The notes beneath the pieces are model-generated. The model was given only the letters and a program-made list of their open reading frames with translations, made no database searches and was not told where the DNA came from. Positions 16,937 to 30,140 of a DNA stretch of 32,000 nt are shown one piece after another. Numbering within the stretch: the first letter of the stretch is position 1; the number at the start of each line of letters is the position of its first letter. The stretch comes from Ignicoccus islandicus DSM 13165 (lineage in GTDB: Archaea > Thermoproteota > Thermoprotei_A > Sulfolobales > Ignicoccaceae), in NCBI RefSeq assembly GCF_001481685.1, contig NZ_CP006867.1:660001-692000 (forward strand), in the 5' to 3' direction. Made by a program: the position numbers and the translations under genes.

Positions 16937-17994
16937 AGCCCCATCCCATAGACAGATTTATTGGTCTACAGAAATATTTCACTTCCGTTACGCCGCCGTG
17001 CGAAATTAGAATCGAGCGTCCATATGATTTTCATGTAATAGAAAATCCTTATTTAGAGCAAGGTAATGAAAACTTGTATATAATGGAAAAATGTTGTATA
17101 GATACAATTCATGCAGTAAGGGAACTTGAAAAAGCGACTGGAACTACTTGGAAGTATTCGGGATTGAAAGACGCGCATGCAGTCACGGTTCAGTTAGTAA
17201 GTTCATGGTCATCAATCAAGAATGAAATGACTCTGTCTAAGGGAAAGAAATGCGTAAGGGTTAAGAAGGTAGGAGTCGGGAAGTTAGTCAAAGGAAAGAC
17301 CAAGGGAAACGTGTTCGTAATAAGGCTTCGCCCGGAATGTAACGTTAAGGAATACATTGATGGAGTTTTATCAGAACTCTACTGCGTTCCTGGAATATAT
17401 GGATACCAAAGATTTGGGACTAAGAGACCCATAACGCACGTAATAGGTAAGCTTATACTAAAAGACTCATTCGATGAAGCTCTTGACGTCCTCCTAGGTG
17501 AACCAACGCCTTGGGAAAGTCCAGTCGCGAGGGAAATTAGAAAAAGATACTATTCTGAAGGCCCAAAAGCCTATTTAGACGCACCTAAATATATGGATAT
17601 AGAAAGGAAAGTTTCACTCATGCTCCTTAATGGATATTCTCCCAAATACGCATTAAAGAGACTTCGCATATTCGATCTATTCTTAAACGCATTTCAAGCA
17701 TACATATATAACTTAGCTCTGACAAGCGAAAACGAAATAAACAGATTCAATGTGACTCCGGGCTATAATACTTGGGGGCTTTATCGGGAATACTTTGAAC
17801 TAAATGAAGTAGATAGGAAAAGTCTCAAGCGATATAGGATAAGAGGGGTTCACAGATTACCTTGTTACAACGCTCAAATTCGATTACATAAACTGGATGG
17901 GGACGTAGTTCTAGTTTTTAAGCTGCCGAGGGGCTATTACGCTACAAGTGTATTGAGAGAAATTGTGAAAGGCGATCCAAAAAACTTTTCTTAA
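16933..17994 (+). CDS. truD: tRNA pseudouridine synthase TruD/Pus7 family
   Basis: [11 protein letters not shown] (catalytic Asp motif GxKDxxAxTxQ) and GYQRFG. 353 aa. ATGA start/stop overlap with rpl14e. Confidence 0.85.
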
Positions 17995-18962
17995 GATTCC
18001 ACCACCGGACCTATTACGGTTTTTCCTACGAGCTTGTTGATGAATTCTACTTGTTCGTCTATTATTTCTTGAAGCCTCCTAATTTGATCCTCTGTCATGT
18101 GTCTGAATCTACCTTGAATCTTTACGAACTCTCTAACCGGTTTCCTCTTTAACACCGGTTGGGTGACCTTATATTGGCCGTGATCATATTCGTATAGGAT
18201 CCAATAGCCCGTTTGGACGGCCAGCCTCGCTACCTCTATAGTTAGCGAGGGATCGAACCTCCACCCGGTGGGGCAGGGGCTATAGGCGTGCAGGAAACTC
18301 GGTCCATCTTCATTGAGCGCTTTAACCATTTTATTATACATATCAACCGGATACGCAGGATTTATTGTTGCGGCGTACGGTACGTGATGAGCTACTGCTA
18401 TCTGAATCATGTCTTTTCTAACTCTCCATTCTCCCTTCCACCTCTTACCTACGGGCGTCGTAGTAGTCCAAGCACCGAATGGCGTTGAACCAGACCTCTG
18501 AATTCCAGTGTTCATGTACGCCTCGTTATCAAGGAGAACGTATACTACTTTGTGACCCCTTTCGAGCATACCCGAAAGGCTCTGGAAGCCTATGTCTACA
18601 GTACCTCCGTCTCCGGCGAATACGACTACATTGATCCTCTCGTCTTTCGGTAGGACTCCTTTCTTCTGAAGTACTTTTACTGCGGCTTCAACACCGGAAG
18701 CGACCGCTCCACCGTTCTCGAAAGCTACGTGAATCCATGGAACTCTCCAGCTAGTATATGGGAATACCGATGTTACGACCTCTAGACACCCCGTAGGGTT
18801 TACTACTATCGTATTAGGACCGGCCGCCTTCAGTAAGTGCCTAACTATTACGAAGTGACCACATCCTTGACAGGCTGAGTGACCAGGTGCTATTAGCTCT
18901 CCTCTAGGTATTTGCATGTGAGTTCTTATTGGTTCCATGGGTTTTACTTCCTTAAGAGCCAT
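17991..18962 (-). CDS. porB: 2-oxoacid (pyruvate/ketoisovalerate):ferredoxin oxidoreductase beta subunit
   Basis: GHSACQGCG and TPP-binding FAGDGGTVDIG...NEAYMNTG. Last gene of the gamma-delta-alpha-beta operon. Substrate cannot be determined from sequence alone. Confidence 0.92.
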   Translation of the reverse strand: MALKEVKPMEPIRTHMQIPRGELIAPGHSACQGCGHFVIVRHLLKAAGPNTIVVNPTGCLEVVTSVFPYTSWRVPWIHVAFENGGAVASGVEAAVKVLQKKGVLPKDERINVVVFAGDGGTVDIGFQSLSGMLERGHKVVYVLLDNEAYMNTGIQRSGSTPFGAWTTTTPVGKRWKGEWRVRKDMIQIAVAHHVPYAATINPAYPVDMYNKMVKALNEDGPSFLHAYSPCPTGWRFDPSLTIEVARLAVQTGYWILYEYDHGQYKVTQPVLKRKPVREFVKIQGRFRHMTEDQIRRLQEIIDEQVEFINKLVGKTVIGPVVES

Positions 18963-19012
18963 ACATCACCACCTCCAACATCATAGACTTATTCAATAAG
19001 ATAATTGAAAAA

Positions 19013-20203
19013 TTACTCCCTTAGACCTATTGGAATGGTCTTGTCTGGTACTTGTTTGCCCTCGCTAAACTCCTTTAACTGCTTGGCGACTGCTACTAGG
19101 TCTTCTACTCTCACATCTCTCTGACCTATTCCGATAGTGTAACTAGCTAACTTGGGAGCACATGAAGGATCGCTTGCATACATACTCATAACGTCCAGAG
19201 ATACTGGTCCCTGTCTAGGTGCCCCCAAGGAGAAGGCTCTGTCCAGAACCCCAACCACGCTCACGTTCTCTAGCGCCTTCCTTAAGTGAGGAGTTGGGAA
19301 GGGCCTCCAGAGCCTTAGCCTTATCAATCCGACTTTGATGCCTTCCTTTCTGGCTTCATCTACAGCAACTCTTGCCGTTCCAGCGTGAGCACCGTAGGCG
19401 AGCATCGCTACTTCGGCGTCATCCATTCTGTACGTCTCAATTACACCGTACTTATGGCCGAACATCTCACCGAACTTCTCGTCGGCTTCTTCCGCAACCT
19501 TTAGAGCGTTCTCCATTGCTACTTGTTGCTGGTATTTGAACTCGTAATAGTAATCTGGATCTCCTACTACACCCATACTCACCGGGTTCTTCGGGTTTAG
19601 CGTTTTCCAAGTTATCTTCTTTGGAATGTACTTCAACACGTCTTCTTTATCGTATACATCTACCGGTTCAGTGACGTGGCTCATAACGAATCCATCGTAG
19701 TCGACGATGGCTGGCAAGTGAACTCTGGGATCCTCAGCTACTTTGAACGCTTGAATGACCGTATCATATGCTTCTTGAGCTGAGCTAACGAAGTATATGA
19801 TTAAGCCAGCATCCCTTAATACCGCTATATCGTGCATATCTCCCCAGATGCTCAGGGGAGCGCTTAAGGCCCTTGAAGCCACGCCTAGAACTATTGGTAG
19901 CCTGAGTCCTGAGGCTATGTATAAGACCTCGGCCATATAAACCAATCCTTGGCTGGCCGTAACCGTAAACGCTCGGGCACCTACAGCAGAGGCACCGACT
20001 AGCGCGGAAGCAGCGGAATGTTCTGACTCAACGTGTATGTACTCGGCATCCATTTCTCCGTTCGCGACGAATTCTGCTAGCTTCTCTGCAGCGGGCGTGG
20101 ATGGAGTTATTGGATACGCCGCTACTACGTCTACATCAGAGTCTTTGGCAGCATGTGCAACTGCGTAGTTCGTTGTTAGAGCTTTCCTAGTTTTCCTAAC
20201 CAT
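19013..20203 (-). CDS. porA: 2-oxoacid:ferredoxin oxidoreductase alpha subunit
   Basis: ALTTNYAVAHAA...AAYPITPST...ESEHSA motifs. I prefer ATG 20203, 5 nt after the porD stop, over ATG 20230, which overlaps porD by 22 nt. Confidence 0.92.
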   Translation of the reverse strand: MVRKTRKALTTNYAVAHAAKDSDVDVVAAYPITPSTPAAEKLAEFVANGEMDAEYIHVESEHSAASALVGASAVGARAFTVTASQGLVYMAEVLYIASGLRLPIVLGVASRALSAPLSIWGDMHDIAVLRDAGLIIYFVSSAQEAYDTVIQAFKVAEDPRVHLPAIVDYDGFVMSHVTEPVDVYDKEDVLKYIPKKITWKTLNPKNPVSMGVVGDPDYYYEFKYQQQVAMENALKVAEEADEKFGEMFGHKYGVIETYRMDDAEVAMLAYGAHAGTARVAVDEARKEGIKVGLIRLRLWRPFPTPHLRKALENVSVVGVLDRAFSLGAPRQGPVSLDVMSMYASDPSCAPKLASYTIGIGQRDVRVEDLVAVAKQLKEFSEGKQVPDKTIPIGLRE

Positions 20204-20208
20204 ATCTA

Positions 20209-20514
20209 TCACCTCTCTTCGGGTACCCATTCTATAGCATTAACTGGGCATTCCCTCCAACAAATACCACAACCTTTACAATGTTCATAATCTACATCGT
20301 ATCTTTTTCCTAGCTTAGCATTAGGGTCGTCAATTTCAAGTATTGCATCATCTGGACAGTATATCCAGCAAAGTCTACACCTAGTGCACTTTTCATCTAC
20401 TATAACTGGTTTGAAGACTCTCCACTCGCCAGTTGAAATTACCTCAGAGTTTCCTGGATCGGAGATTATTGCTCCTTCGGGTAATTCCTTCCAACCAGGT
20501 AACTTTGAGCTCAT
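20209..20514 (-). CDS. porD: 2-oxoacid:ferredoxin oxidoreductase delta subunit (2x[4Fe-4S] ferredoxin-like)
   Basis: CTRCRLCWIYCP and CKGCGICWRECP cluster motifs. ATGA overlap with the gamma subunit. Confidence 0.9.
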   Translation of the reverse strand: MSSKLPGWKELPEGAIISDPGNSEVISTGEWRVFKPVIVDEKCTRCRLCWIYCPDDAILEIDDPNAKLGKRYDVDYEHCKGCGICWRECPVNAIEWVPEER

Positions 20515-21065
20515 GGGACTATCACCTCTTCATATGCTCTTTTAACAGCTTCTATGTTGGCCTCTACTGTTCTTGGGGGGACTTTAGACTTTACAGCTTC
20601 TAGTACTGAATCTAAAGAAACTAAACCAGTTACTTTTACGAAAGCGCCTAAGATGGCTGTATTGACTATCGGCCTCTTTAGAGTTTCTAGGGCTATCTTC
20701 GTTGCGTCTACAGTTGCGACTTTAGCATCTTCTCTATTTAGTATCTTTTTGACCTCTTCAGGAGATTTTTCCGTGTTAACTATTACCGTTCCCCCTTCCT
20801 TCAAGCCTTGCGCTAGTCGTGGTTCTAATAGAGTAGGATCTAATACGACCATAATATCTGGTGTATATATTTTAGATCTAACGTAGATAGGAGAATCGCT
20901 AATTCGAGTATATGCTTCTACCGGTGCTCCTCTCCTTTCGACGCCGAAGGAAGGAAACGCTTGAGCGTACTTCCCCTCGCTTATAGCGGCTATAGCTACG
21001 ATCTCCGAAGCCGTAACGGCTCCTTGACCACCTCGACCGTGCCATCTAACCTCGACTAGAGACAA
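20511..21065 (-). CDS. porC: 2-oxoacid:ferredoxin oxidoreductase gamma subunit
   Basis: RWHGRGGQGAVTASEI...FPSFGVERRGAPV is the typical gamma-subunit N-terminus. TTG start. Confidence 0.9.
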   Translation of the reverse strand: MSLVEVRWHGRGGQGAVTASEIVAIAAISEGKYAQAFPSFGVERRGAPVEAYTRISDSPIYVRSKIYTPDIMVVLDPTLLEPRLAQGLKEGGTVIVNTEKSPEEVKKILNREDAKVATVDATKIALETLKRPIVNTAILGAFVKVTGLVSLDSVLEAVKSKVPPRTVEANIEAVKRAYEEVIVP

Positions 21066-21098
21066 CGCACGGAACCCGTAGAACTGGGAATAAGGGGG

Positions 21099-21114
21099 TT
21101 TATACGTGTATAAA
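21099..21114 (-). promoter_or_regulatory. Palindromic double TATA element upstream of the oxidoreductase operon
   Basis: TTTATAC-GT-GTATAAA is a perfect 7-bp inverted repeat, each arm TATA-like. It lies 34-49 nt upstream of the gamma-subunit start and just downstream of the giant ORF stop. Confidence 0.4.
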
Positions 21115-21130
21115 CTTACTTAGGTTATAC

Positions 21131-24100
21131 TTACTTCAAGGAATACGTTAGCAATTGCAATATGTTTCTTATTAGGTCGTTCAAGTAAGGTATTGTTTGT
21201 AGAATTGTAGTTGTAAGGACCTTCGTTACTGTTGTTGTGTAATTAAGTATCCTCTCTATATTAGTCTTTATTGTTACTGTAAATGTCAGTTGTTTGGTTA
21301 TTGTGGTTGTTATCTCCTTTGAGACGGTAGTTGTAGTAATTGAAGTTGTAGTAACAATATTCTCTATAGTCTTAACTAACGTCACTTCTGATAGAGACGT
21401 AATAGTGCTTAGAGAAGTGACGAATGCTAAGAAGGCCTTTGTAAGCGTTGAGGTAACTGTTACGTGAATCCCAGTTAGCAATAACTGAGTTGTTGTAAGC
21501 ACTTGCGTAATTGGAATTAATAATGACGTTAACATAGTTGTTATAGAGTTTATTACAATTGGCTTTACTTTCGTTACTAGTTCAGTTGTTATCAAAGTTA
21601 TAGTAGACTTAATCATCAAGGGAATTGACGCTATTACTGTAGTATAGACTATTGATGGAGAAACTGTAATACCTAGGACCTTAGTAATTGTTGTTGTAAC
21701 TGGTATTTCGGCTAATTTAGATAGCATAGTGGTAATCGTGAGCGTTATTGCATTTGTTAACGTAACCGTTAAAGTACTATTTCTTATTAGTAATCTATAT
21801 ACTGTCGTAGTTTGTTCAAGGTTTCTTGGGATTATAATAGTCTTTGTAATCGTTAGGGTACGTCCGTATCCATCAATTAACATGGTAATCGTAGTTGTTT
21901 TCAAACTCATTAGTGGTAATATGAGCGTCCTAGTGGTGGTTATTGGCATCACTCTAGTTGTGACTACGTTTTTAACCCTCTCAATCTCTATTGGTATCGT
22001 TATCTTCTTAGTGAATCTCTTCTCTAGAGGTATTAGTATGGACTTCGTGGTAGTATATACCTCTTGAATGAAGTTAGTTACTGTGTTTGTTTTGGTTAGT
22101 GGTAATATCTTTGTATAAGGTAACGTCCTGGTATATTCGTAAGTTAACGGTACAAAGACTTTGACGGTCTCGGTAGTTACTACTGGGACAGGTTCGTAAA
22201 GCGTTGTCGTCGAAGTCACAGGCATGAAGGTAGTAAGGTGAAGCGTTACTACCTTTTGAATTGGGACAAGTTTACTGATAGTTGTGGTATATGTATTGAT
22301 TAGAGTTTGGGTTATCTCGTGTATGATAGTAAGCGTTTGAGTTACCGTCGTTACTAAGCTTGTACTCAAAGTGATACGTAGAGGTATCAGTAAACTCTTG
22401 GTTAGAATTTGCGTCAATGTTGAGGTTATAGTGCTTACCAGACTTACTAAAGATACTTGAGATACGAAATACGGAACAGTTAACGTCTTTTCCACGGGTT
22501 TTATAACAGTACTTAGCTCCTTCTGGGTAATTAGGATAGGCGTTACTATTGTTTTAGTCAAATAGTTCGTTAATACTTTTAATGATGTAATAGTTGTCGT
22601 GGTTATATATGTTTCGATACTCGTTAAGTACTTTACATAGGTAGCAGTCGTAGTAATCGTTTTAGTTACTTCCATAACGTTAGTAAGGGTTGTAGTCAAG
22701 GTCTTGAAAACGTTTACTATGACTTCTTGGAGGCGCGTATTAGTTAATGTCTCAGTAATCCTCAAAGTAGTTACAAATAGCTTAGGTACAATGCTTGTAG
22801 TAACTCTTTCAATCGTTGTAGTAATAACTGATATTATGGGATAGGGTTTTGGAACTTCCTTAGTTAAGGTCAAGGTGACTAGTTGAGTTACCGTTTTGAG
22901 TTGGGTGAACGTTCTCTCTACTATTCTAGTTAAGGTTGTGGTAGTGCTTTCGATGATAGTGGATGTGAAAGTTATTGCCGTAGTAATCCAGCTATTTGAA
23001 TAGATGGTAATAGTCTTTGTTGTAGTTGCCTTTAAGGTAGTTAGTATAGTAGTAGGTATATATTCTGTGAATGTTTTAACGATAGGTTCTACTAAGGTCT
23101 TAGTAGAAGTTGCTACGATAGAGTATACCTTGGTGTATGTGATTGGTATAGATGCGAAGACGGTTTTCGTTACTTCGAGGGTACTTGTTATTGTTGTAGT
23201 GATTTCACGAGTAAAGAAAGCAGAGCTTACGTAATAAATCACCTTCGTGTAAGTACTTGTCAGTTCGATTGGTTGTAAATGCGTTAGCGTTAAGGTGGTA
23301 GTTATTGTCTCGTATCTTGTAATTGTAGTAATTAAGCTTATCAGTTCGGAAATAGTCATTAGCGAGGTTGTTATAGGTTTGCTGAGAGTTTGAGTTATAA
23401 CTTGCGTAATTATTGTTGTAAGGGTCCTATACGATGTAACTGTAGTGGTTGTGGTTACGGAAGACAACAAGTACTTTAAGAGAGTTATTGTAGTAGATAT
23501 AACGTTTTCAATGACCTTAGTGAGAGTTTTCGTTACCTCTGACGTTACAGTGTATACTATGGTGGAGATAGATGGGACTGCCACCAGTCTAGTTGTAGTA
23601 TAGGTAGATGTGACTGTAACCTCGTAGCTTCCTTCACCTATGGCAAAGGTAACGTAGGATCTGCCTATTTTCATTACCTTAGTAGTTATCACATTACTAA
23701 TTTTGTTTACTACTGGAACCTCTACTTGGGTAGTAATAGTTGTAGTGAAGTTTCGGTACTCAATTTCGATAGTGGTTTCGACAGGTATTTCAGTAATCGG
23801 ACTTTCTAAAGGAGATAGTGGTGAGGCGGCTAAACCTACCGTATAGGGTATCTTTAGGATCGCTGGAATAAGAGTGGTAGTATATATAGTGCTTGTATAC
23901 TTGACTATCTTGAACGTCGTTACTGTATAAGTCCTTTCCAGTTCAACTGGCCTTAGTTCTGTTATTGTCTTGAAGTTTGTAACAGTCGTGAGAACGTAGT
24001 TAGGAGGAAGCGTATCAAGTTTAATTAGCTTCAAATTTGCTATTGCAAACATTACGTTATATGGTGGGGATGTAATTAACATGTTCAATCCTACGTAGCT

Positions 24101-24829
24101 TTCCGGAGCATATTCTAAGCTTAGTGAATCAACTAACCATCCGAAGCCTTCCGGAGTAAGAACAGACGACCTAGATATTATCGAAACCTTCCTGACGGCT
24201 TCATGGAAGTCCCTCCCAACAACAGAATAAGCGATGATAATCCTTTTTGCCCAATTTTTCAATTCTAGGTCATCGCGACCCATAACCCTTAAGTGGAAGT
24301 AAGCCTCAGCGACCCAATCGTTGTTAATACCAATTAGAGATCTGGCCTTCATTGCTACCTCTTCAACAATCCCATCAATTAGAACTGAGTATGTTTCATT
24401 AAAGCCCCTACATTTTAGGTTAGATAGCCCTTCTAATGCAATGAGTTTGGCTAAAGGATCTGATGTGTTTAGTATCTTATTAGTAACATCCGAAATGAAG
24501 TTTAGCAAACTCTCGTTACACTCGGAATTGAGGATGGAAAGTGAGGCGATACCGTATGCAGCATCGAGGTAATCTGAATGCTTGATGGCTTCTGTAGTCA
24601 ACTCTATTAATCGCTCTCTCAATTCAGGTATGTCGAGGTTATTCGTCGCATTCATCAAGAGTATTGTCTTAAGGGAAATGTACGTCTTCGGCAGGTCCGT
24701 GAAATCTAACGGTACCAGGTTCCCATTCACTAGGTTAATTGTGACGGCAGTGTAATTGAAGCTGTTAATCGGATTAGAGACTGCTATTGTTATGAGCACT
24801 AGTGAAACTATTAGCGTGCTAAGCCTCAT
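21131..24829 (-). CDS. Giant secreted Thr/Ile/Val-rich protein (1232 aa), family unknown; probable cell-surface glycoprotein
   Basis: Uninterrupted 3.7-kb ORF with an ATG start and a CTATATAATT box about 35 nt upstream. Signal-like N-terminus MRLSTLIVSLVLITIAVS, then a ~330-aa normal-composition domain with many N-x-S/T sequons, then ~900 aa of degenerate T/I/V/L/S/K/E sequence with TTT to TTTTT runs. Confidence 0.85.
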   Translation of the reverse strand: MRLSTLIVSLVLITIAVSNPINSFNYTAVTINLVNGNLVPLDFTDLPKTYISLKTILLMNATNNLDIPELRERLIELTTEAIKHSDYLDAAYGIASLSILNSECNESLLNFISDVTNKILNTSDPLAKLIALEGLSNLKCRGFNETYSVLIDGIVEEVAMKARSLIGINNDWVAEAYFHLRVMGRDDLELKNWAKRIIIAYSVVGRDFHEAVRKVSIISRSSVLTPEGFGWLVDSLSLEYAPESYVGLNMLITSPPYNVMFAIANLKLIKLDTLPPNYVLTTVTNFKTITELRPVELERTYTVTTFKIVKYTSTIYTTTLIPAILKIPYTVGLAASPLSPLESPITEIPVETTIEIEYRNFTTTITTQVEVPVVNKISNVITTKVMKIGRSYVTFAIGEGSYEVTVTSTYTTTRLVAVPSISTIVYTVTSEVTKTLTKVIENVISTTITLLKYLLSSVTTTTTVTSYRTLTTIITQVITQTLSKPITTSLMTISELISLITTITRYETITTTLTLTHLQPIELTSTYTKVIYYVSSAFFTREITTTITSTLEVTKTVFASIPITYTKVYSIVATSTKTLVEPIVKTFTEYIPTTILTTLKATTTKTITIYSNSWITTAITFTSTIIESTTTTLTRIVERTFTQLKTVTQLVTLTLTKEVPKPYPIISVITTTIERVTTSIVPKLFVTTLRITETLTNTRLQEVIVNVFKTLTTTLTNVMEVTKTITTTATYVKYLTSIETYITTTTITSLKVLTNYLTKTIVTPILITQKELSTVIKPVEKTLTVPYFVSQVSLVSLVSTITSTLTQILTKSLLIPLRITLSTSLVTTVTQTLTIIHEITQTLINTYTTTISKLVPIQKVVTLHLTTFMPVTSTTTLYEPVPVVTTETVKVFVPLTYEYTRTLPYTKILPLTKTNTVTNFIQEVYTTTKSILIPLEKRFTKKITIPIEIERVKNVVTTRVMPITTTRTLILPLMSLKTTTITMLIDGYGRTLTITKTIIIPRNLEQTTTVYRLLIRNSTLTVTLTNAITLTITTMLSKLAEIPVTTTITKVLGITVSPSIVYTTVIASIPLMIKSTITLITTELVTKVKPIVINSITTMLTSLLIPITQVLTTTQLLLTGIHVTVTSTLTKAFLAFVTSLSTITSLSEVTLVKTIENIVTTTSITTTTVSKEITTTITKQLTFTVTIKTNIERILNYTTTVTKVLTTTILQTIPYLNDLIRNILQLLTYSLK

Positions 24830-25104
24830 AATTCAATTTCCCGAAGTATTCCCGAGTACAGAATTATATAGGATTCACCCTTGTTTCGACCTCATCGATT
24901 AAACCGAGATTAAGACGAATCGTCTCGTCTAAGTCATTTGGAATTCAATCGCAAGGTGTATGACTCAATGTTCCCGCTTCGCGGATTTATTCTTAGCCTT
25001 TAGAATAATAAGGTATAACTTCAAGGGACACAATATGCTCAATATAAAGATGATTATAAATTGCGAGTATGACTTGAGAGAGTACATAGGTATAGTAATA
25101 GGAG

Positions 25105-25183
25105 TGGTGCGGCGGCCGGGATTTGAACCCGGGATCACCGGCTTGGAAGGCCGGCATCCTAGTCCAGGCTAGACGACCGCCGC
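25105..25183 (-). tRNA. tRNA-Gly(TCC), CCA encoded
   Basis: RNA sense is GCGGCGG TC GTCT AGCCTGGACTA GGAT G CCGGC CTTCCAA GCCGG TGATC CCGGG TTCAAAT CCCGG CCGCCGC A CCA. Confidence 0.92.
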
Positions 25184-25194
25184 ACGAGGGATGT

Positions 25195-25271
<77 letters not shown>

Positions 25272-25984: not shown

Positions 25985-26257
25985 ATGTTCTCAAAAACAG
26001 AATTAGAGGCATTGATAGCTTCGACTGAGAAAGCGTTTAGAGAACTTCGAGAGAGAATAGGTAATTACAAATATGAAAAAGGAAAGATAGGTAAATCTGA
26101 AGTTAGACTAATATATAAAGTTTTGAACGCAGAGGGCGAATACTTAATTTTCATTAAATATAGAGAGGGTAAAGTGTGGGTAGAAGGGCCGAGACACATT
26201 GCAATTCCTTTGAAAAACAGAATTAACTCGCTTCTTGGGAGGCTTCTAGAACAATAA
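25985..26257 (+). CDS. Hypothetical protein (90 aa)
   Basis: ATG ORF with balanced, globular-looking composition (helix then beta strands). No motif recognised. Confidence 0.45.
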   Translation: MFSKTELEALIASTEKAFRELRERIGNYKYEKGKIGKSEVRLIYKVLNAEGEYLIFIKYREGKVWVEGPRHIAIPLKNRINSLLGRLLEQ

Positions 26258-26579
26258 TCATAGAAGCTATGAAAGCTATATCGAAAGCGACATTTATTAG
26301 GAACTTATATAGGAAATCTATTGCTAGCAGAACTATGCCTAGTGTTAAGTACGCTTTAACCGGTCCAGCCTCCTTTATCAAGTAAGAGCCTAGGGCTCCC
26401 ATGAGTGTATAATACACCGTCTTGGAAAACAATGAAGCAACGAATCCCCTAAAACCCAATTCACCGCCGTAAGCAATAAGGAAGAAGGTCCCAACCGAAA
26501 GAGCCAATGGTAACGATACTAAAAATGAAATAATGAACCTCTCAAAGCCGCTAACGGGTATAGCTCTTGGATGAGCCAA
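26223..26579 (-). CDS. Hypothetical integral membrane protein (118 aa, about 4 TM)
   Basis: Four hydrophobic segments. TTG start abuts the divergent aglH start. Converges with the 90-aa ORF, overlapping by 35 nt. Confidence 0.42.
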   Translation of the reverse strand: MAHPRAIPVSGFERFIISFLVSLPLALSVGTFFLIAYGGELGFRGFVASLFSKTVYYTLMGALGSYLIKEAGPVKAYLTLGIVLLAIDFLYKFLINVAFDIAFIASMIIVLEASQEAS

Positions 26580-28575: not shown

Positions 28576-28770
28576 TTGAAGTGCTTGAATTACAATAAGT
28601 TCCTAGTTTCTCTAGTAATTGCTGGTTTGATCTCAACCGTAATAGGCTATGGCCTCCTTGGTTACTACTTCGCCCTCAATGTATTCATATCGTCTTTATC
28701 TTTCGCTCTAGCTCTAATAGTTTCAACCTTCGTTGTTGAGGTGATATGTAATTGGAGCGGATATTGTTAA
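28576..28770 (+). CDS. Hypothetical small membrane protein (64 aa, 2 TM)
   Basis: TTG start follows CTGAGGA. Two hydrophobic helices. 3' end overlaps the subtilase start by 19 nt. Confidence 0.35.
   Translation: MKCLNYNKFLVSLVIAGLISTVIGYGLLGYYFALNVFISSLSFALALIVSTFVVEVICNWSGYC
28738..28744 (+). promoter_or_regulatory. Shine-Dalgarno element for the subtilase gene
   Basis: GAGGTGA lies 7 nt upstream of TTG 28752 and matches the archaeal anti-SD complement (GGTGA core). Confidence 0.5.
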
Positions 28771-30140
28771 CGTTCTTCTTAATCCTCTTGCTATCGTTCT
28801 CAGCTTCTGCTGAGGTAATTCAATTGAAGGACATTGGTTGGATTTACGGTCCTAACGGCCTCACTGCCATTAGGGGTGGTGGGAATCCCATTCGCGAATT
28901 GCTACTCGATAATTACGTTGCCAGTCACGTTGCGCAATCGTCCTCTGGTTCTTGTAAATACGGTTGGTGGAGCGAGGTACTAGGCGTTAGTTACGCTAGG
29001 GACCACGGTCTCGATGGTACTGGAGTCAAGGTATTGGTAATAGACAGTGGCGTTGATGATAACGTTTTGCAAGAAGCATTAGGGAGGAAGATTGATTATC
29101 ACTTCAATGCAGCTTATGAAGTATACAAGGACTTATGTTTAGGCAATTTGACTATTAATGGCATTGAATATTGCTATATAGATAAGTACAAGTTGGACTC
29201 TTGGCGAACGGAATACGTGGCAATTCCTCTCTCCCCAGTTGACGAGATAGGTCATGGTACGGCTGTGGCGGCAACGGTCCTTTCAGTTGCACCGAACGTA
29301 ACCCTTTACTCGGCAAAGGTTAACATAGACCTAATTGATATTGACGATCGAGGAAATGTATACATCATTCAAAGCCTCCTTGATCCACTTGCCATTCACT
29401 GGGCCCTTGCGAAAGCAGTCTACGGCCCTGATGGAGTACCGAATACAAATGACGATGTTGACGTGGTTAACATGAGTCTGGGTGGCGTAATTTATCCATT
29501 GCCTTCATATCTTTCCGTAATAAACCTCGGAGACGAGCTGTTAGCTTGGTATATATTCAAACAACCAATTAGCGAAAATAGTAACAGAGTATTATTTGTA
29601 GCATCAGCTGGGAATTCGGGCGATAGGGTCGTTTCAATACCGGCAATAGTCGAAGAGGTAGTAGGTGTTTCTGCATTAGAGTATTACAACGGCGAATGGA
29701 AATTGGCTTCCTTTAGTACTACGGGATTAGGCGTAGACTTCGCGTCACTTGGTTCCGGTCTGTACTTACCTGTACCTAAGGATTCCCTCATTGCTAGGTT
29801 GATTACAGACGGATGTGGTACTGAAGGTAACTACACTAAGTGGGTTAGACTAGACGGCACGTCGTTTTCGTCACCCCTCGTCGCTGGAATAGCTGCCTTA
29901 TGGAAGCAATACACTAATGCAGAAGGAAACGAACTTTTCAAGATATTAGCGAACCATGCAATGGACGTTCTATCTAGTGGAAAGGATCTAGAAAGCGGTT
30001 ACGGCGTACCAATTGCTCCGTTCTACGAACCTCCCAACAGTAGTCAAGTTAGCTCGAGCGTGCCCTCAACTCCTCTAGCAGTATTCCTTTACCCCTTACT
30101 TAGATCTATTAGGAACTATATGATAAGGAAAATCAGGTAG
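28752..30140 (+). CDS. Secreted subtilisin-like serine protease (peptidase S8)
   Basis: Signal peptide MERILLTFFLILLLSFSASA. Catalytic motifs in D-H-S order: VLVIDSGVD, GHGTAVAATV, oxyanion SAGNSG and GTSFSSPLVAGIAAL. Ser-rich linker, then a short hydrophobic and basic C-terminus. Confidence 0.9.
   Translation: MERILLTFFLILLLSFSASAEVIQLKDIGWIYGPNGLTAIRGGGNPIRELLLDNYVASHVAQSSSGSCKYGWWSEVLGVSYARDHGLDGTGVKVLVIDSGVDDNVLQEALGRKIDYHFNAAYEVYKDLCLGNLTINGIEYCYIDKYKLDSWRTEYVAIPLSPVDEIGHGTAVAATVLSVAPNVTLYSAKVNIDLIDIDDRGNVYIIQSLLDPLAIHWALAKAVYGPDGVPNTNDDVDVVNMSLGGVIYPLPSYLSVINLGDELLAWYIFKQPISENSNRVLFVASAGNSGDRVVSIPAIVEEVVGVSALEYYNGEWKLASFSTTGLGVDFASLGSGLYLPVPKDSLIARLITDGCGTEGNYTKWVRLDGTSFSSPLVAGIAALWKQYTNAEGNELFKILANHAMDVLSSGKDLESGYGVPIAPFYEPPNSSQVSSSVPSTPLAVFLYPLLRSIRNYMIRKIR

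Follow-up and report, generated by a model that had tools for sequence, protein, structure and literature searches.

A threonine-rich gene upstream of the POR operon

The window analyzed here is a stretch of 32,000 nucleotides from Ignicoccus islandicus DSM 13165 (contig NZ_CP006867.1, positions 660,001 to 692,000). Directly upstream of the POR operon it carries an open reading frame (ORF) of 1232 codons that begins with ATG and, together with its stop codon, occupies positions 21131-24829 on the minus strand (24829 to 21131). According to the ORF call and its positional orthologs, the 1232-aa product is a Thr-alternating and very likely secreted protein, orthologous to Igni_1255 (arCOG07838) of I. 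hospitalis. An earlier annotation made from the letters alone, referred to below as the sequence-only reading, had the extent of this ORF right and left its minus-strand orientation unstated.

The ORF is a genuine protein-coding gene of I. islandicus. No stop codon interrupts the 1232 codons despite a G+C content of 37%, the three-nucleotide periodicity is strong, and the identical protein is called on Logan assemblies. Codon usage is native and resembles that of the neighboring genes for all codons including the four Thr codons, which indicates that the Thr pattern described below is held at the protein level; a recent microsatellite origin of this pattern is ruled out by the same use of all four Thr codons. 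Tandem Repeats Finder reported no DNA tandem repeats in the gene (0 rows), in line with the earlier view that a collapsed or expanded assembly repeat is unlikely, and an assembly-collapsed repeat is ruled out on this basis.

Two candidate expression signals were read from the sequence upstream of the start codon. A TATA-box-like TATATAA, a putative promoter element, is located 35-41 nt 5' of the ATG (24864-24870, minus strand), and a Shine-Dalgarno-like CGGG is found at 24840-24843 (minus strand). One of the orthologs described in the next section, L088, carries CCTATATAG at the same distance from its start as the TATATAA of I. islandicus, and CGGG or GGGT stands ahead of the start codon in all orthologs. 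The flanking proteins, assigned to I. islandicus DSM 13165 by exact look-up, bear consecutive GenBank accessions (ALU11717 and ALU11718), and the 3.7-kb ORF was therefore apparently left without a coding-sequence annotation in the original I. islandicus record.

Orthologs and homology searches

Relatives of the gene were reached via its conserved neighbor, by tracing POR-gamma homologs of 70-83% identity to their contigs. At 10 loci of the Ignicoccus lineage, an intact ORF of 1150-1301 aa without Pfam match lies directly upstream of POR-gamma on the same strand; the orthologous loci are L082/L083 (I. hospitalis), L084/L085, L086/L087, L088, L089, L090, L092, L093 and L094. All 10 retain POR as their immediate neighbor, while the upstream neighbors occur in three arrangements. 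The next lineage out (L091, POR-gamma 65% identical) has no such ORF at its POR locus, and the family is so far found only in the Ignicoccus lineage. The orthologs share a Thr content of 23-27% and an alignable head of ~260 aa. In BLASTP, I. islandicus matches L088 with E = 2e-75 and L088 matches I. hospitalis with 1e-39; the direct comparison of I. islandicus with I. hospitalis yields E = 3e-6 and 34% identity over 139 aa.

The window gene is thereby placed in the uncharacterized Igni_1255/arCOG07838 group. Igni_1255 was identified by gene order, with Iho_1254 (233 aa, beta-lactamase fold) followed by Iho_1255 (1278 aa) and the POR genes Iho1256-1259, and the arCOG07838 label was taken from Table S1 of PMC3149612. 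In that table, Iho_1255 is a hypothetical protein of 1278 aa, positive in both SignalP and PredSi and lacking a transmembrane domain, for which mass spectrometry yielded 61 and 52 adjusted spectral counts (Giannone et al., 2011; PMC3149612). Igni_1255, with 25% Thr, resembles the window protein in position, signal peptide, head domain and Thr-alternating tail; it differs by two extra Cys and by its ending ...SIPVLIYG. Beyond the proteomic detection we found no discussion of Igni_1255 in the literature searched. The gene is accordingly already catalogued as a hypothetical protein and detected by proteomics, and its architecture and possible role are undescribed as far as we found.

Searches by sequence agree with the sequence-only reading that the family is an unrecognized one. 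Pfam returned no family at E <= 1 for the window protein or for any of the 7 orthologs scanned, NCBIfam and PHROGs gave no match for the protein or its orthologs (PHROGs 0 matches), and no PDB chain was found at E <= 1 by sequence search, with a best value of E = 0.16 in profile searches with the alignments A2 and A1. Word-index searches of 5.8 billion clusters with the whole protein and with the N-terminal domain returned nothing, from a collection that does not contain these proteins, and two scans of metagenome contigs found no relatives. Among the matches listed for POR-gamma in a scan of genome contigs, none came from an Ignicoccus genome. Exhaustive HMMER against 1.84 billion representatives recovered one fragment of 140 aa (E = 1.8e-9). 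By exact look-up, the window protein and the 7 orthologs looked up are absent from a collection of 15 billion protein sequences. Since the proteins themselves are missing from these collections, negative results obtained there say little about the distribution of the family. The family thus exposes a blind spot in public resources, where ordinary homology searches of large clustered collections return nothing.

Architecture of the protein

The protein starts with a Sec-type signal peptide (residues 1-18, MRLSTLIVSLVLITIAVS; 24776-24829, minus strand) that has a basic n-region and a hydrophobic core of 15 residues with a Kyte-Doolittle value of 2.04; its cleavage site is a predicted one. Such a signal peptide, or an equivalent N-terminus, is present in 10/10 orthologs. 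We consider the protein very likely secreted because of this conservation, the invariant Cys pair described below and the positive SignalP and PredSi predictions for Igni_1255, all of which support the secreted protein with a signal-like N-terminus proposed from the sequence alone. Outside the signal peptide, the hydrophobicity nowhere clearly attains the transmembrane level, with one borderline stretch at residues 1051-1069. Transmembrane helices in the tail were rejected on these grounds, and the C-terminal membrane anchor that the sequence-only reading had also failed to see is indeed missing.

A conserved head domain of ordinary composition follows (residues 19-280; 23990-24775, minus strand), predicted to consist entirely of alpha-helical hairpins. 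The earlier estimate of an ordinary domain of ~330 aa was correct as to its presence and too long as to its extent, as the domain ends near residue 280. Eleven residues of the head are invariant in alignments A1 and A2 (P40, L70, A90, Y92, C104, C140, E175, Y177, W193, G228 and G230). Among them are the sole two Cys of the I. islandicus protein, C104 (24518-24520) and C140 (24410-24412), which delimit a span at 24410-24520 on the minus strand and are both invariant in 7/7 aligned orthologs; they form a probable disulfide pair, judging from this conservation. The sequons NYT, NAT, NES, NTS and NET all fall within the first 150 aa, so that the two Cys and the five sequons lie in the N-terminal domain as previously read. 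As regards the heavy glycosylation that the sequence-only reading had proposed, each ortholog has only 7-15 N-sequons. A single-sequence AlphaFold2 model of the head shows helices H53 to H235, with a confidence score (pLDDT) of 70-81 only at residues 70-120, and Foldseek with this poor model gave just generic helical-repeat matches (E > 0.1).

The remainder of the protein is compositionally extreme. Residues 291-1232 consist of 27.6% T, 12.4% I, 11.1% L, 10.0% V, 6.7% S, 5.7% K and 4.8% E, with Ile, Leu and Val together making up 33%, and the tail is very hydrophobic overall (GRAVY +0.45). The stretch from residue 331 to 1232 has 8 Gly, 2 Asp, a single Trp and no Cys. Runs of at least three Thr number 25. 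These figures bear out the composition previously judged by eye (Thr a quarter or more of residues, no Cys, a single Trp and scarce Gly and Asp).

The C-terminus follows a common pattern. In 8/10 orthologs (L082, L084, L086, L089, L090, L092, L093 and L094) the protein ends in (I/V)P(I/V)xx(Y/F/L)(G/S)-COOH. The counterpart of this ending in I. islandicus is T-I-P-Y-L at residues 1212-1216 (21182-21196, minus strand), after which 16 more residues follow (21134-21181), and L088 ends in VVPIVV plus 10 residues. The conserved ending could be a sorting or assembly signal.

Two extra Cys occur in the hospitalis-type orthologs L082, L084, L086, L092 and L093 (residues ~263-267 and ~709-754) and in L089 (residues 271 and 559). 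One of them lies at the border of head and tail (YCNK), the other in a short non-periodic linker of the tail, and in L082, L084 and L086, the phase-segmented ones among the first five of these orthologs, the linker Cys coincides with the main switch of Thr phase. A disulfide between the extra Cys, if formed, would fold the first block of 450 aa back on itself.

Two periodicities in the tail

The tail (residues 281-1223; 21161-23989, minus strand) is a cryptic (x-Thr)n region, as seen in parity counts, autocorrelation and spectra. Parity counts divide it into phase blocks at residues 281-318, 395-491, 487-989, 983-1063 and 1064-1223. In the longest single-phase block (residues 487-989; 21863-23371, minus strand), Thr makes up 46% of the positions of one parity compared with 11% in the other, that is 116 versus 28 Thr (binomial p = 6e-14), and a windowed statistic of Thr parity reaches z = 10.4 against shuffles. 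Thr autocorrelation is ~+0.15 at even lags and ~-0.15 at odd lags, and remains undiminished to lag 40. Thr parity is present in every ortholog, with phase blocks of 24 to 847 residues and 1-8 phase switches per protein in the 7 orthologs segmented. Among 1879 ORF segments from 1.35 Mb of loci and many phyla, only the target family displayed this pattern.

The two parities differ strongly in composition. Pooled over the 7 orthologs, positions of Thr parity hold 50% T, 6.1% P, 4.6% S and 21% Ile/Leu/Val, and positions of the other parity hold 47% Ile/Leu/Val, 12.6% T, 8.9% S, 8.7% K (11.5% K+R) and 0.6% P; Pro thus sits on the Thr parity. Thr-parity positions are also better conserved than the others, with 89.5 vs 71.4% in the closest pair and 66.7 vs 35.6% between L090 and L094. 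Insertions and deletions in the tail are nearly all of even length (2, 2, 2; 6, 2, 2, 2, 30, 8 and so on). Internal domain repeats were rejected, as self-BLAST of the protein gave a marginal best score of 27 bits vs 21 in shuffles. The phase switches differ in place between lineages and are evidently tolerated, and the most economical explanation of the long-range phase coherence is therefore a slippage bias of 6 nt in ACN-NTN DNA combined with local selection on Thr.

A second rhythm is superimposed on the first. The hydrophobic residues are negatively autocorrelated at lag 2 (-0.19) and positively at lags 4, 8, 14, 18, 22, 26, 30, 36 and 40, which are the even numbers closest to multiples of ~3.65. 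The averaged spectrum (120-aa windows, 10 orthologs) peaks at 3.64 residues with a power of 3.29 vs 1.04 and z = 25 against shuffles that preserve parity, and the maximum for charged residues lies at 3.70 (z = 9). The pi-helix alias (4.44 residues) is much weaker than the peak at 3.64, which indicates a true rhythm of ~3.64. The spectra contain no long "rung" period of hydrophobic, charged or Pro residues and no peaks at 11, 22 or 33 residues. The rhythm is kept in orthologs whose sequences are beyond alignment.

Prolines punctuate this rhythm. The tail has ~35-40 of them, and the longest stretches free of Pro measure 80-212 residues. Inside Pro-free spans, cos(2*pi*lag/3.64) describes the autocorrelation with r = 0.78, the hydrophobic correlation is -0.23 at lag 2, and a value of +0.12 is still found at lag 36; for pairs straddling a Pro the fit falls to r = 0.16, and hydrophobic residues flank the Pro (h-P-h, +0.15 at lag 2). 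The median best period of 77 Pro-free segments of at least 36 aa is 3.64, and the long segments of I. islandicus have hydrophobic periods of 3.65-3.82. The rhythm analysis marks residues 420-484, 593-659, 683-763 and 1107-1213 of the tail (minus strand) as long Pro-free amphipathic segments.

In 20-32% of windows, the hydrophobic moment of alpha type lies above the 95th percentile of shuffles, and the beta-type moment shows no enrichment past the parity effect (1-9% of windows vs 5% expected). In the 96 strongest windows, the non-polar half consists of 65-78% Ile/Leu/Val plus 10-25% Thr and the polar half, in which acidic residues are few, of 42-46% Thr, 11-14% Ser and 7-11% Lys. These figures are partly circular, since the hydrophobic moment served to select the windows. 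At ~180 degrees the non-polar face is wide, and K+R exceeds D+E in the tail of every ortholog, which is net basic. Both periodicities, the Thr parity and the 3.64-residue rhythm, are real. The hidden periodicity for which the sequence-only reading had suggested autocorrelation hence exists twice over, as period 2 in Thr and as 3.64 in the hydrophobic residues.

Sequence evolution

The closest pair of orthologs, L092 and L093 from one vent metagenome, allows the evolution of the gene to be compared with that of its surroundings. The proteins of the flanking genes share 96-100% identity in this pair (dN 0-0.018, dS 0.26-0.62), and the target protein is 82% identical (dN 0.104, dS 1.1), so that its dN is ~6-50 times that of the flanking genes. 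The overall dN/dS ratio of 0.09 (head 0.05, tail 0.11) places the gene under purifying selection. Between species the tails can no longer be aligned, at distances where POR-gamma is still ~80-90% identical. Such fast change combined with raised synonymous divergence typically marks surface-exposed proteins that undergo allelic exchange. In the two co-occurring vent strains, dS of the target (L092 4289-7936 vs L093 4298-7936) is 2-4 times that of the flanking genes, which suggests that an allele at this locus was replaced by recombination.

Genomic neighborhood

The POR operon (gamma, delta, alpha, beta; 17991-21065, minus strand), assigned by Pfam matches and synteny, lies directly downstream of the gene. 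That the two are neighbors on the same strand had been noticed in the sequence-only reading, and the arrangement holds at the orthologous loci as well. Between the stop codon of the ORF and the start of POR-gamma we found a perfect palindrome, GTTTATACACGTATAAAC (21098-21115, minus strand), that includes TTTATA/TATAAA. The motif TTTATACATGTATAAACCCCC is kept in L084, L086, L088, L092 and L093, and variants occur in L082 and L089. This palindrome probably serves the POR operon as a promoter or operator of its own, and the Thr-rich gene and POR are therefore probably separate transcription units. Co-transcription as the reason for the adjacency was rejected on the grounds of this conserved palindromic TATA region.

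Directly upstream of the ORF follow tRNA-Gly(TCC) (25105-25183, minus strand) and tRNA-Ala(GGC) (25195-25271, minus strand). The tRNA pair is specific to I. islandicus, and the other genomes have a gene for a beta-lactamase-fold protein or HxlR instead. On this side of the ORF are also found a DJ-1/PfpI gene, a GT4 (AglH-like) gene, a gene for a KaiC-like ATPase and an S8 subtilase gene. The subtilase (28752-30140, plus strand) carries a signal peptide, and its C-terminal end (…AVFLYPLLRSIRNYMIRKIR) is hydrophobic and basic, so that it is probably membrane-anchored. As had been stated, AglH and the subtilase are located within 5 kb of the gene; neither is syntenic in the other genomes, and a functional link to either of them was dropped for this reason. 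An ORF of 118 aa (26223-26579, minus strand) without Pfam match is hydrophobic in several stretches, and it overlaps the oppositely oriented GT4/AglH-like gene at the start of the latter. In the Logan assemblies of I. hospitalis, TruD is split into two ORFs (58 and 280 aa) in L083 (11075-12111) and is a single ORF of 345 aa in L082 (11075-12112); the split is probably an assembly or sequencing frameshift.

Structure and possible role

Ignicoccus is described with an outer membrane, and no S-layer has been reported (PMC5468417; bioRxiv 10.64898/2026.09.08.750209). Its intermembrane compartment contains a branched matrix of filaments or tethers of 3-6 nm that link the membranes and have not been assigned an identity (PMC5468417). 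Taken together with a helical reading of the tail, this filament matrix and the lack of an S-layer lead us to propose a scaffold of the envelope. We posit, with confidence slightly short of even, that the gene encodes a Sec-exported structural protein of the cell envelope whose tail is built of Pro-delimited amphipathic alpha-helices and serves as coat or filament; conformation, location and role are each inferred.

The tail would then be a chain of ~25-35 proline-delimited amphipathic alpha-helices, many of them 40-100 residues long, in which two rules are combined. Every second residue is Thr, less often Ser or Pro, and the residues in between are Ile/Leu/Val or Lys/Ser/Glu, set by a rhythm of 3.64 residues that restarts at each proline. 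Each helix would present a wide face of Ile/Leu/Val and a charge-poor face dominated by Ser and Thr, and would be net positive. Exported into the intermembrane compartment, the protein may bury its hydrophobic faces in one of two ways: the helices may lie along the membrane surface as a coat or scaffold, in the manner of the 11/3 helices of apolipoprotein and perilipin-4 on lipid, or they may bundle together as thin filaments or tethers. For the head, docking to a partner is envisaged.

Several observations weigh against this proposal. The beta-branched residues Thr, Ile and Val account for half of the tail, which has little Ala, Glu, Gln or Arg, a composition whose propensity favors beta structure. 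A strict Thr period of 2 is the classical signature of a beta-strand with no obvious purpose in a helix, and the helix model offers no explanation for the alternation. Indels of two residues would flip the face of a continuous helix and would need to fall in linkers. The single-sequence AlphaFold2 models are unusable (pLDDT 41 for the head and 35 for the tail), and the face compositions carry the circularity mentioned above. The abundance of Igni_1255 is modest (RSpC 14-18) and low for a major coat, with the caveat that its sequence and possible glycosylation would lower its detection.

An alternative is the extended beta-rich fiber or sheet, in which Thr would line one face, possibly with dense O-glycosylation, and the other face would pack on a partner or membrane. 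A Thr period of exactly 2 without decay over more than 40 residues is what such a structure would show, as are Pro on the Thr parity, hydrophobic residues at i and i+2 around Pro (IPV, LPL, VPV; +0.15), windows with their maximum at period 2.0 (such as residues 862-945 and 988-1029), indels of even length and the 50% of beta-branched residues. The hydrophobic residues off the Thr face, however, anticorrelate at i+2 (-0.23 in Pro-free spans) and follow the 3.64 rhythm to lag 40, which is unexpected for a strand or solenoid. Moreover, there is no rung or repeat period, the beta moment stands at its chance level, the Gly, Asn and Asp usually needed for turns are nearly absent, and Ignicoccus has neither S-layer nor sheath (PMC5468417). 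We regard this alternative as unlikely. The sequence-only reading had favored a beta-rich fiber, sheath or S-layer-associated protein, and in view of the helical rhythm, its breaks at Pro, the unenriched beta moment and a host without reported S-layer, the association with a beta-fiber or S-layer is probably wrong.

Helical structure could also take the form of a tetrabrachion-like stalk, in which the Pro-free segments of several chains would combine into a parallel non-heptad coiled coil (11/3 or 15/4), forming a stalk or filament of at least 100 nm with the head at one end. Staphylothermus, the tetrabrachion maker, is a relative in the Desulfurococcales. The overall period of 3.64 (3.65-3.82 in long I. 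islandicus segments), the non-polar face of ~180 degrees, the Pro-free stretches of 80-212 residues and the 3-6 nm filaments of the intermembrane space (PMC5468417) are in agreement with a coiled coil; the ~35-40 prolines, across which the hydrophobic phase is lost, argue against a single continuous one. As no Pfam family (tetrabrachion included) or PDB chain matches, a C-terminal membrane anchor is missing and the polar face is Thr-rich and charge-poor, which sets it apart from known coiled coils, we judge such a stalk to be quite improbable. A disordered, mucin-like glycosylated spacer, with periodicities left as a relic of an ancestral dipeptide-repeat expansion, would account for the low-complexity composition, the tail pLDDT of 35, the very fast divergence and the indels of even length, which fit slippage of 6 nt. 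With a GRAVY of +0.45 and 33% Ile/Leu/Val, however, the tail exceeds by far the hydrophobicity expected of a soluble disordered chain; conservation favors the Thr-parity positions, at a tail dN/dS of 0.11, the 3.64 rhythm persists in orthologs that cannot be aligned, and the fully mixed Thr codons speak against a recent repeat. We therefore assign the spacer a very low probability. A spurious or decaying ORF, an untranslated artefact of composition, might be suspected from the consecutive accessions ALU11717/ALU11718 and from the absence of the protein and its orthologs from large collections, and is effectively refuted by 1232 stop-free codons at 37% G+C, the three-nucleotide periodicity and native codon usage, and the conserved promoter-like and Shine-Dalgarno-like elements. 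Frameshifts, a lack of conservation or missing peptides had been named in the sequence-only reading as signs that would tell against the gene; instead, ten orthologs are intact, dN/dS is 0.09, and peptides of Igni_1255 have been detected.

Returning to the envelope scaffold of amphipathic helices, the gene is of interest as Ignicoccus is the organism on which archaeal double membranes, a dynamic endomembrane system and the symbiosis with Nanoarchaeum are modeled. The proteins that build its envelope are almost unknown, and the identified components of the outer membrane in the literature covered are the pore protein Ihomp1 and a few enzymes. The gene provides a specific candidate that is lineage-restricted, exported, expressed and large enough to span 100 nm. 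A more far-reaching version, which we hold to be rather improbable, would make the protein the subunit or main component of the 3-6 nm filament and tether matrix, or a coat supporting the S-layer-less outer membrane, with a previously undescribed class of fold. If true, the double-membrane cell plan, of which no other example is known in cultivated archaea, would have its first assigned structural protein, and the fold of this protein would be a new class of helices, or of helix/strand chameleons, with Thr at every second residue. In that case, an arms race at the cell surface, fought with Nanoarchaeota or viruses, would lie behind the very high divergence between strains. A design of ~900 residues kept by selection in orthologs diverged past alignment also poses a question of protein design at 90 degrees C.

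Comparison with known systems

Threonine in alternation is known from the TxT beta-solenoids of insect antifreeze and bacterial ice-nucleation proteins, where it lies on a beta face and the coils have a fixed length, and the amyloid-forming regions of fungal adhesins are T/I/V-rich extracellular stalks with discrete repeats; these families have Gly, Cys or Asn at their turns. The fixed coil period of 12-16 residues typical of TxT solenoids is absent in the window tail, whose rhythm is helical, and a TxT beta-solenoid was excluded by the missing rung period. An archaeal S-layer glycoprotein was likewise rejected, as no S-layer domain of Pfam or NCBIfam matches and the host is described without S-layer.

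Tetrabrachion, the S-layer stalk of Staphylothermus marinus, is a right-handed coiled coil with an 11-residue repeat and a rhythm of ~3.67, rich in Ile and Leu. It resembles the window protein in stemming from a hyperthermophilic relative in the Desulfurococcales, in being secreted and more than 1200 aa long, and in its long non-heptad fibrous region. Of the continuous undecad (11/3) pattern of hydrophobic residues, the window tail has the period of 3.64, whose coherence is lost across the ~35-40 prolines. In contrast to tetrabrachion, the window protein has many prolines that break the rhythm, a polar face that is Thr-rich where that of tetrabrachion is charged, no C-terminal anchor, a host without S-layer and no sequence match, either in Pfam or to the solved fragment of the right-handed coiled coil (RHCC) in the PDB. 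The lack of a match, of an anchor and of a host S-layer, together with the many prolines, excludes membership in the tetrabrachion family.

Parallels are also found among amphipathic helices. ALPS helices have a polar face dominated by Ser and Thr with few charges, and are cytosolic, eukaryotic, 20-40 aa long and unfolded until bound. The window tail is alike in its polar face; it is ~940 aa long, exported and far more hydrophobic. In apoA-I, prolines punctuate the helices, as they do in the window tail.

The closest analogs in design are the 11-mer helices of perilipin-4, apolipoproteins and alpha-synuclein. Perilipin-4 (Plin4) contains an amphipathic region of ~1000 aa that is enriched in Thr and Val, carries Thr in its non-polar face and has a net positive charge (PMC5889406). 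The window protein differs from Plin4 in being exported and archaeal instead of cytosolic, and shares no sequence homology with it; neither the window protein nor 7 orthologs matched the perilipin or apolipoprotein models of Pfam. Its tail is also more hydrophobic (33% Ile/Leu/Val, GRAVY +0.45), is almost free of Gly, follows a strict Thr alternation that Plin4 does not have, and lacks the 11-, 22- or 33-mer repeats of the Plin4 type (0 rows in Tandem Repeats Finder, marginal self-BLAST, no spectral peaks). What the two have in common is an amphipathic region of ~900-1000 aa that is rich in Thr and Val and net positive, with a period near 11/3 and with Thr on the non-polar face as well; the amphipathic periodicity of the perilipin and apolipoprotein type is thus found in the window tail (3.64, z = 25) as a pattern of sequence.

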